Made by a program: the position numbers and the translations under genes | Source: Giardia intestinalis | Taxonomy: Eukaryota | Assembly (NCBI GenBank): GCA_000002435.2 | Contig: CM018791.1 | Reading direction: 5' to 3' (one strand) | DNA length: 64,000 nt | Shown here: positions 58,421-59,659 of the stretch, one piece after another | Numbering within the stretch: position 1 is the first letter of the stretch | Layout: each line of letters starts with the position of its first letter | The notes under the pieces: generated by a model | What the model was told of the DNA's origin: nothing | What the model saw: the letters and a program-made list of their open reading frames with translations, nothing else | Databases searched by the model: none

Positions 58421-59659
58421 ATGGGTGACCAGCATAAGGGCGTCCCGAAGGTGGATCTTAAGGACCTAATGGACGGGGACATAGTTTCAGAAGAGTTCAT
58501 AGACGACTACAAGAAGGTGTCATCCTGCTCGGGGAACTGCAGCAGTTGTCAGGATAAATGCAAACAGTTCTTTAAGCCCAAGCAACGCTTCAAGGTATCC
58601 CTTCAAGAGCAGAACGTGGTTATAACCGCCAAGCTGATGCGCTTCGACCATATAATTTTTATCTTGTCGGGGAAGGGCGGCGCAGGCAAGTCAACCTTAG
58701 CAATTCAGTTGGCGTATGCCCTCGCAGAGCACTACGACTACAAAGTCAATCTGTTCGATGCGGACATCTGCGGCCCGTCCATCCCGACTCTTACGTTTAC
58801 ACAGATGGCCGATACAAACATCTTCGTTGAGAATCTGGGCTGGGATCCCATACCCCTCACAGACAGGATCCACCTTATGTCCGCTGGCTATCTGGTTGGG
58901 GATAAGGACACCCCGATAATCGTCGACGGCGACGGGAAGGAGGAGTTTCTGCGGGAGATGCTCTTCAACACAAACTTCGAGTTTTGCAGTTCCAGGGAGC
59001 GTGAGGAAGGCTGCAAGAACGTGCTGATTATTGATTTTCCTCCGGGGTCGTCTGAGGAGCATCTGGTGATGACTGCGTTGGTCCGCCGGTGTCTGATGAG
59101 CGACTCCATGGTGCGCTTGAGCAGCTCCGGTGTGTTATCTGCGGGCCACGTTAACTCCCAGGATCAAAGCAGCATATTTGGTGATATTGGGGGCCGTTTG
59201 GACGGGGCGATTAACACCCATGAACGCCATGAGGCTGCAAAGTCTCTGCTGGCTGCCTCGGCCGCAGCTGGGACAAAAAGGCACCTGCCAACCATATACA
59301 GCCTCATCATCTCTACGCCTGATGAGGTCTGCCTGTCCGACGTCCGGCGTGAAGTTCTATTTTGCCGGACGATAGGCCTCGCCGTCAGAGGGCTCGTCCA
59401 AAACATGAGCGGATTCGTCTGTCCGCACTGTGGCACAAACACAGAAATATTTGTCCCCCTTACTGGGGGCTGCGAGAGGCTGTCCGCCGAGACAGGCATC
59501 CCTTTGCTTGGAAGCCTGCCCATCGATCTGAGCCTTTGCGAAGCAGCCGAAGAGGGCGGATCATGGCAGGATTACGTTAGCACTCATGGACGTGTAGGGT
59601 ATGACAAGTTTCTGGAGGTTGTTAGGCTCATGCTTGAGAGCAACGAAAAATCCGTGTAA
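58421..59659 (+). CDS. NBP35: Nbp35/Mrp-family Fe-S cluster assembly P-loop ATPase with a ~75-aa insertion
   Basis: The ORF-track start at 58361 is GTG; the first ATG is at 58421 (MGDQHKG). N-terminal Cys cluster CSGNCSSCQDKC, deviant Walker A ILSGKGGAGKSTLA, C-terminal CPHCG motif (CPxCG). Confidence 0.85.
   Translation: MGDQHKGVPKVDLKDLMDGDIVSEEFIDDYKKVSSCSGNCSSCQDKCKQFFKPKQRFKVSLQEQNVVITAKLMRFDHIIFILSGKGGAGKSTLAIQLAYALAEHYDYKVNLFDADICGPSIPTLTFTQMADTNIFVENLGWDPIPLTDRIHLMSAGYLVGDKDTPIIVDGDGKEEFLREMLFNTNFEFCSSREREEGCKNVLIIDFPPGSSEEHLVMTALVRRCLMSDSMVRLSSSGVLSAGHVNSQDQSSIFGDIGGRLDGAINTHERHEAAKSLLAASAAAGTKRHLPTIYSLIISTPDEVCLSDVRREVLFCRTIGLAVRGLVQNMSGFVCPHCGTNTEIFVPLTGGCERLSAETGIPLLGSLPIDLSLCEAAEEGGSWQDYVSTHGRVGYDKFLEVVRLMLESNEKSV

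Follow-up and report, generated by a model that had tools for sequence, protein, structure and literature searches.

The Nbp35 paralogue GL50803_14604 of Giardia intestinalis carries an insertion of about 65 residues, occurring only in Giardia, that by alignment is genuine and sits at an otherwise length-fixed site of the protein family. We put at about even the chance that this translated expansion segment forms a paralogue-specific protein-interaction surface. The insert may bear on the question of how the Fe-S output of the mitosome reaches the cytosolic CIA machinery. A conserved surface module restricted to Giardia would offer a concrete candidate determinant, easy to delete, for mitosome association or paralogue-specific pairing.

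A divergent Nbp35 paralogue and the site of its insertion

The gene spans positions 58421-59659 on the plus strand of the window, a 64,000-nucleotide stretch of contig CM018791.1, and encodes 412 residues and a stop from an ATG at 58421. The initial annotation had called it a Giardia Nbp35/Mrp-type ATPase, and the translated product is indeed identical to XP_001710315.1 (UniProt A8B3U7), "Nucleotide-binding protein 35" of G. intestinalis WB. A proteomics supplement lists XP_001710315.1 as GL50803_14604, 412 aa and 45 kDa, at CH991782:1208568-1209806, and includes it among those that mass spectrometry found in organelle fractions (PMC3986054). Both this gene and its paralogues had been known and annotated before this analysis; for the insert itself, no description was found in the accessible literature, a scope without the primary Giardia Nbp35 paper (Pyrih 2016).

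Orthologues in assemblage B, assemblage E (P15) and two further lineages share ~87% identity with this protein, are all exactly 412 aa long and lie in conserved gene order (NUDIX, Nbp35, unknown, eIF4E). They begin at the ATG equivalent to 58421; a GTG at 58361 is an alternative mechanical ORF start that would give a 432-aa form. The downstream gene has a conserved ATG at 59664, 4 nt past the Nbp35 stop (59659-59666), while its mechanical ORF, from an ATG at 59601, reaches back into the 3' end of Nbp35. Of the four orthologous loci, three (L002-L004) have this gene called 5 nt past the stop, and in L001 its called start lies within the 3' end of Nbp35. A 119-aa antisense ORF on the minus strand (59164-59523) spans the insert and the CPHC region and is a candidate only, from mechanical listing.

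Family membership is clear, with Pfam PF10609 (NUBPL/Mrp-type P-loop NTPase) matching in two stretches (E 1e-53; 182.7 bits, with the cutoff at 27.1). The N-terminal cysteine cluster, the Walker A sequence GKGGAGKST and the CPHCG motif named by the initial annotation are all present. The four-cysteine motif C36-X3-C40-X2-C43-X3-C47 (CSGNCSSCQDKC, 58526-58561) has the spacing CX3CX2CX3C; compared with the canonical Nbp35 CX13CX2CX5C, 10 residues are deleted. As aligned, its first three cysteines fall on canonical columns and the fourth lies two residues off, with Q49 at the canonical column; all four are invariant. Residues 31-76 around this motif are 96% invariant among the five lineages, exceeding the conservation of the ATPase core.

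The nucleotide-binding machinery is similarly retained. The deviant Walker A, G84-K-G-G-A-G-K-S-T92 (58670-58696), has both lysines, with Ala at position 88 where the family has a near-invariant Val. In a 119-sequence alignment, G84, K85, G86, G87, G89, K90, S91, T92, D113, D115 and D205 all occupy invariant columns. The Walker B/switch II sequence L202-I-I-D-F-P-P-G209 lies at 59024-59047, and the CPXC motif C334-P-H-C337 (59420-59431) stands at invariant columns. CPXC binds the bridging [4Fe-4S] cluster in Nbp35/Cfd1. Because the Walker A lysines, switch I aspartates, Walker B aspartate and CPHC are kept, ATP-dependent dimerisation and bridging-cluster binding are plausible for this protein.

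Elsewhere the paralogue is strongly derived. Among 104 positions at least 90% conserved in 115 other proteins, 37 are changed in GL50803_14604, whereas the other proteins have a median of 2 such changes and at most 11. The changes include V88A, WRGP168-171 to VDGD, W186F, T206F, T210S and D212E. The family block W-x-x-hDYhhhDTPPGTSD is accordingly altered, by W186F, a 10-aa insertion, T206F, T210S and D212E, with PPG and the EH residues retained. That insertion is a second lineage-specific insert of ~10 aa, E187-F-C-S-S-R-E-R-E-E-G-C198 (EFCSSREREEGC, 58979-59014), directly before the Walker B strand and flanked by C189 and C198, both invariant in the five lineages. Judged from the alignment, the large insert is one of many derived features in a very divergent paralogue, a context that the initial annotation had overlooked. 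Another cysteine, C373 (59537-59539), is Cys only in WB and Arg or Ser in the other lineages.

The segment to which the initial annotation had drawn attention, 59081-59302 on the plus strand, translates in frame to V221-S294, exactly the 74 aa quoted there and within the 412-aa ORF. It lies between the switch II helix (ending at EEHL215) and the next core strand (S298-T-P), which are 82 residues apart in GL50803_14604. The EHL-to-(S/T)TP spacing is 82 residues in four Giardia rows of the 119-sequence alignment and 15-19 residues in all 115 non-Giardia Nbp35-type proteins, exactly 17 in 109 of them, so that the insertion site is essentially length-invariant in the family. The claim that other Nbp35/Cfd1 proteins lack the segment is thereby borne out in 115 of 115 sampled. 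In a 12-sequence alignment, 65 columns present in the Giardia sequences are absent from every canonical Nbp35. Both PF10609 and the Chaetomium Cfd1 structure 6g2g match in two stretches, leaving out residues ~219-293; 6g2g aligns to query residues 72-218 and 294-377, with 15 Cfd1 residues opposite 76 Giardia residues.

The insertion is therefore real, and its proposed size of ~75 aa comes down to a net ~65 aa (roughly residues 226-290, nt ~59096-59290), because about 9 of the 74 residues match the normal helix end and loop. Its description as Ser/Ala/Gly-rich holds in moderate form, these residues making up 38% of the segment versus 20% of the rest of the protein. Strictly conserved blocks show that the segment is not a featureless low-complexity loop.

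Coding status and origin of the segment

Comparison among lineages indicates that the segment is translated. In the four lineages with DNA, pS was ~0.70 for both the insert and the core, while pN was 0.139 in the insert versus 0.041 in the core, giving pN/pS values of 0.20 and 0.058, a 3.4-fold difference. Identity at codon positions 1/2/3 was 0.80/0.88/0.50 in the insert and 0.93/0.97/0.51 in the core. Along the insert, pN/pS was 0.06 over the first 18 residues (221-238), 0.39 over residues 239-256 and 0.18 over the last 38 (257-294). Despite synonymous sites near saturation, the insert has zero indels, variable linker included; neither an indel nor a frame change occurred in the five G. duodenalis lineages, which also define residue invariance throughout, or in more than 100 independent contigs. 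On these comparisons the insert is under purifying selection and holds conserved blocks.

Being in frame and missing from homologues is also what an intron left unspliced, or an artefact of assembly or annotation outside the mature protein, would look like, and this is the only point for such a reading. Giardia introns combine a 5' GTATGT or close variant with a fused branch-point/3' splice site, CTRACACACAG. GTATGT is absent from 58421-59659, and a plus-strand scan for CTRACACACAG with at most 2 mismatches found no branch/3' motif at the 3' edge of the insert. The segment thus lacks the marks of a Giardia spliceosomal intron at both ends, in agreement with the initial annotation, which had seen no splice signals. 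The 222 nt fold no better than shuffled sequence (z = +0.95), which speaks against an intron or artefact; a structured RNA element was rejected on the same value. In the structural model, moreover, neither the switch II helix nor the strand after it would be complete without part of the segment. Given the codon-position pattern with its coding-type substitutions, the pN/pS, the lack of indels and the missing splice motifs, we reject an intron. Short of direct RNA evidence, an intron or artefact is effectively excluded and, in our estimate, very unlikely indeed.

The insert has no relatives in the databases searched. An exhaustive phmmer search with residues 216-297 against 1.84 billion protein representatives recovered a homologue in the Giardia cluster only (2e-31), and no second Giardia cluster carrying a homologous segment appeared among those representatives, other Giardia paralogues included. 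Pfam and PDB sequences gave no match to the insert at E<=10. Outside G. duodenalis, the nearest matches were generic Nbp35 proteins (~190 bits), with no closer orthologue recovered, and scans of JGI metagenomes yielded no match to more distant orthologues. On this evidence the insert is an orphan of Giardia-lineage origin and is found only in the G. duodenalis species complex.

Other sources for the segment were considered. Internal comparison gave short chance repeats only, with no sign of duplication or of origin from a repeat, and a foreign origin was rejected on third-position composition (GC3 0.659 in the insert versus 0.656 in the rest of the gene). Two weak multi-stretch phmmer matches, P0142 (a translated tandem repeat) and P0143 (a bacterial Ig-like repeat protein), were set aside as repeat-inflated. 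The linker LSSSGVLSAGHVNSQDQS (59117-59170, residues 233-250) resembles the repeated motif ISSSGVLSAGDVTADQS of P0143, at E 1e-5 summed over 5 repeats. This likeness is most likely chance or compositional, since the part of the insert concerned is the least conserved and is predicted at low confidence.

Predicted structure and candidate roles of the insert

We modelled the protein with AlphaFold2, fed with the 119-sequence alignment. The full-length prediction has a confident core, with a mean pLDDT of 74.8 and a pTM of 0.78, and orders the region as switch II helix (212-226), short helix (228-231), low-confidence stretch (229-248), two helices (249-261 and 266-282) and strand (291-298). The insert thereby divides into three predicted parts, which together would interrupt the link from the switch II helix to the core beta-strand after it: first a conserved stretch that prolongs this helix, then a disordered linker that evolves fast, and finally a pair of conserved helices.

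The first part is the invariant block V216...L233 (ALVRRCLMSDSMVRL, 59066-59119), which includes the invariant C224 and corresponds in the model to the switch II helix end, its predicted extension and the short helix. The linker, S229-D248 (59105-59164), is variable and predicted at pLDDT below 50. The helix pair (59165-59266) holds the invariant sequences IFGD and ERHEAAKSLLA; these and ALVRRCLMSDSMVRL are unchanged across the five lineages, two of the insert blocks being 15 and 11 residues long, while residues 239-251 vary freely. Residue 259 is Cys only in P15 and Arg in the other lineages. In the full protein the two helices reach block-mean pLDDT values of ~71-85, a prediction that rests on only 4-5 closely related sequences. 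When the segment is predicted without the core, overall confidence falls to 48.8, and the same two helices recur as its best part, at 61-67. The helix pair is probably a consistent prediction for which packing on the core is needed.

Fold topology suggests where these parts would lie. The C-terminal ends of the strands, in parallel alpha/beta P-loop folds, hold the nucleotide site and the MinD/Mrp-type dimer interface, and helix-to-strand connections run at the opposite pole. As the large insert lies in a helix-to-strand connection and the small one before the Walker B strand, both should lie at the pole far from ATP and CPHC, distal to the ATP-sandwich dimer interface. Such a placement would leave the scaffold chemistry intact, explain why the insertions are tolerated and offer a surface. 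The large insert could also respond to the ATPase cycle or nucleotide state, because it is directly continuous with the switch II helix.

From this arrangement we infer that the conserved helix pair may pack on the core to form a paralogue-specific interaction surface. Candidate roles would be association with the mitosome surface or, in an organism without Cfd1, Tah18 and Dre2, pairing with one specific partner. Docking or partner specification is plausible and the most attractive function, because of the mitosome-associated Giardia Nbp35 paralogues and the lineage-specific loop of Toxoplasma CIA1. Several observations weigh against it: the insert is ~3-fold less constrained than the core, confidence in the helix pair drops to 61-67 without the core, and the insert shows no membrane-binding signature. 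Its helices are not markedly amphipathic (muH 0.04-0.30), its best 19-residue Kyte-Doolittle window is 1.38, and a transmembrane or amphipathic anchor was rejected on these values.

The main rival to the docking reading is that the segment is a tolerated, functionally neutral expansion at a permissive site of a fast-evolving paralogue, constrained only by packing and the avoidance of misfolding, an account that we find credible but on balance doubtful. The 37 changes among 104 near-invariant positions, against a median of 2, together with the second insert, suggest relaxed or shifted constraint in this protein. The insert's 3.4-fold higher pN/pS, rising to 0.39 in its middle part, fits the same picture, as do the lack of any homologue or recognisable domain and a GC3 like that of the rest of the gene. 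Yet two blocks (15 and 11 residues) show no change at all although synonymous sites are near saturation, the exact length is kept with no indels even in the linker, and the site is otherwise length-invariant in the family, all of which argue against neutrality. Should the segment have no docking or pairing role, it would be just another expansion segment, specific to its lineage, in a parasite protein that evolves fast.

A different possibility centres on side chains. C189, C198, C224, H270 and H288, clustered at one pole, might build an extra metal, Fe-S or redox-active disulfide site; all five are invariant in the five lineages and lie outside canonical Nbp35 sequence, and as both inserts precede adjacent core strands, topology would make them spatial neighbours. 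Against such a site, the residues have no known ligand motif spacing, H267 varies among lineages, and Giardia proteins are generally Cys-rich; we consider it improbable. Rather unlikely, too, is the most far-reaching proposal, that the two inserts jointly form a new module opposite the cluster site, either an ATPase-coupled mitosome-docking element or a Cys/His metal site. If it were true, GL50803_14604 would be a Giardia-specific link from mitosomal ISC output to a minimal CIA, offsetting the missing Cfd1, Tah18/Dre2 and Atm1. A derived scaffold ATPase with a real extra segment, for which a docking surface is plausible, is a modest curiosity rather than a discovery.

Comparison with known scaffold ATPases and parasite CIA proteins

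The best database matches of GL50803_14604 are Nbp35 proteins. In common with canonical Nbp35/NUBP1 it has the PF10609 core, the deviant Walker A with both lysines, the switch I DxDxxGPS, the Walker B/switch II DxPPG, four N-terminal cysteines and CPXC. Unlike them, it has the ~65-aa insert, the ~10-aa Cys-flanked insert, a compact cysteine motif and VDGD in place of WRGP.

Among solved structures, Cfd1/NUBP2 of Chaetomium thermophilum (6g2g) is the best match both by sequence (1.6e-31) and by fold (Foldseek E 1e-11, with a TM of 0.75 normalised to the target), and the predicted core also matches ApbC and Mrp-type HypB. This ranking says nothing on orthology, because the PDB set searched held no Nbp35 structure. 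Both proteins carry CPXC; GL50803_14604 has an N-terminal cysteine domain, which Cfd1 lacks. Diplomonads are described as being without Cfd1, Tah18, Dre2 and Atm1 in the accounts consulted (PMC6006210, PMC10578589, PMC7980591). Reasoning from the absence of Cfd1, a divergent Nbp35 paralogue could fill the Cfd1 partner role in these organisms.

Within Giardia, the initial annotation had mentioned several Nbp35 paralogues, and three are given in reviews and later papers that cite Pyrih 2016 (PMC6006210, PMC10578589, PMC7980591). One of them, GL50803_10969 (Nucleotide-binding protein 1), is annotated to the same family and likewise turned up in mass spectrometry; it is listed as the Giardia counterpart of the single NBP35 of Spironucleus salmonicida (PMC6397501). 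Compared by length only, it has a canonical 339 aa against the 412 aa of GL50803_14604, too short to have room for the 65-aa insert. Two of the Nbp35 paralogues and Cia2 are described as partly mitosome-associated, in passages that leave the two paralogues unmatched to GL50803_14604 and that report localisation only for the Giardia Nbp35 proteins (PMC6006210, PMC10578589).

Toxoplasma gondii provides a functional analogy for a possible role of the Giardia insert. There, TgNBP35 has an N-terminal TMD anchor (PMC12674569), which GL50803_14604 lacks, with its best 19-residue Kyte-Doolittle window at 1.38. The internal CD5 loop of T. gondii CIA1 is lineage-specific and necessary for mitochondrial association (PMC12674569). 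It differs from the Giardia insert in belonging to a WD40 propeller protein of another lineage, in its length of 289 aa and in showing no sequence relationship to it; like the Giardia insert, it is a lineage-specific internal addition to a conserved CIA protein of a parasite.
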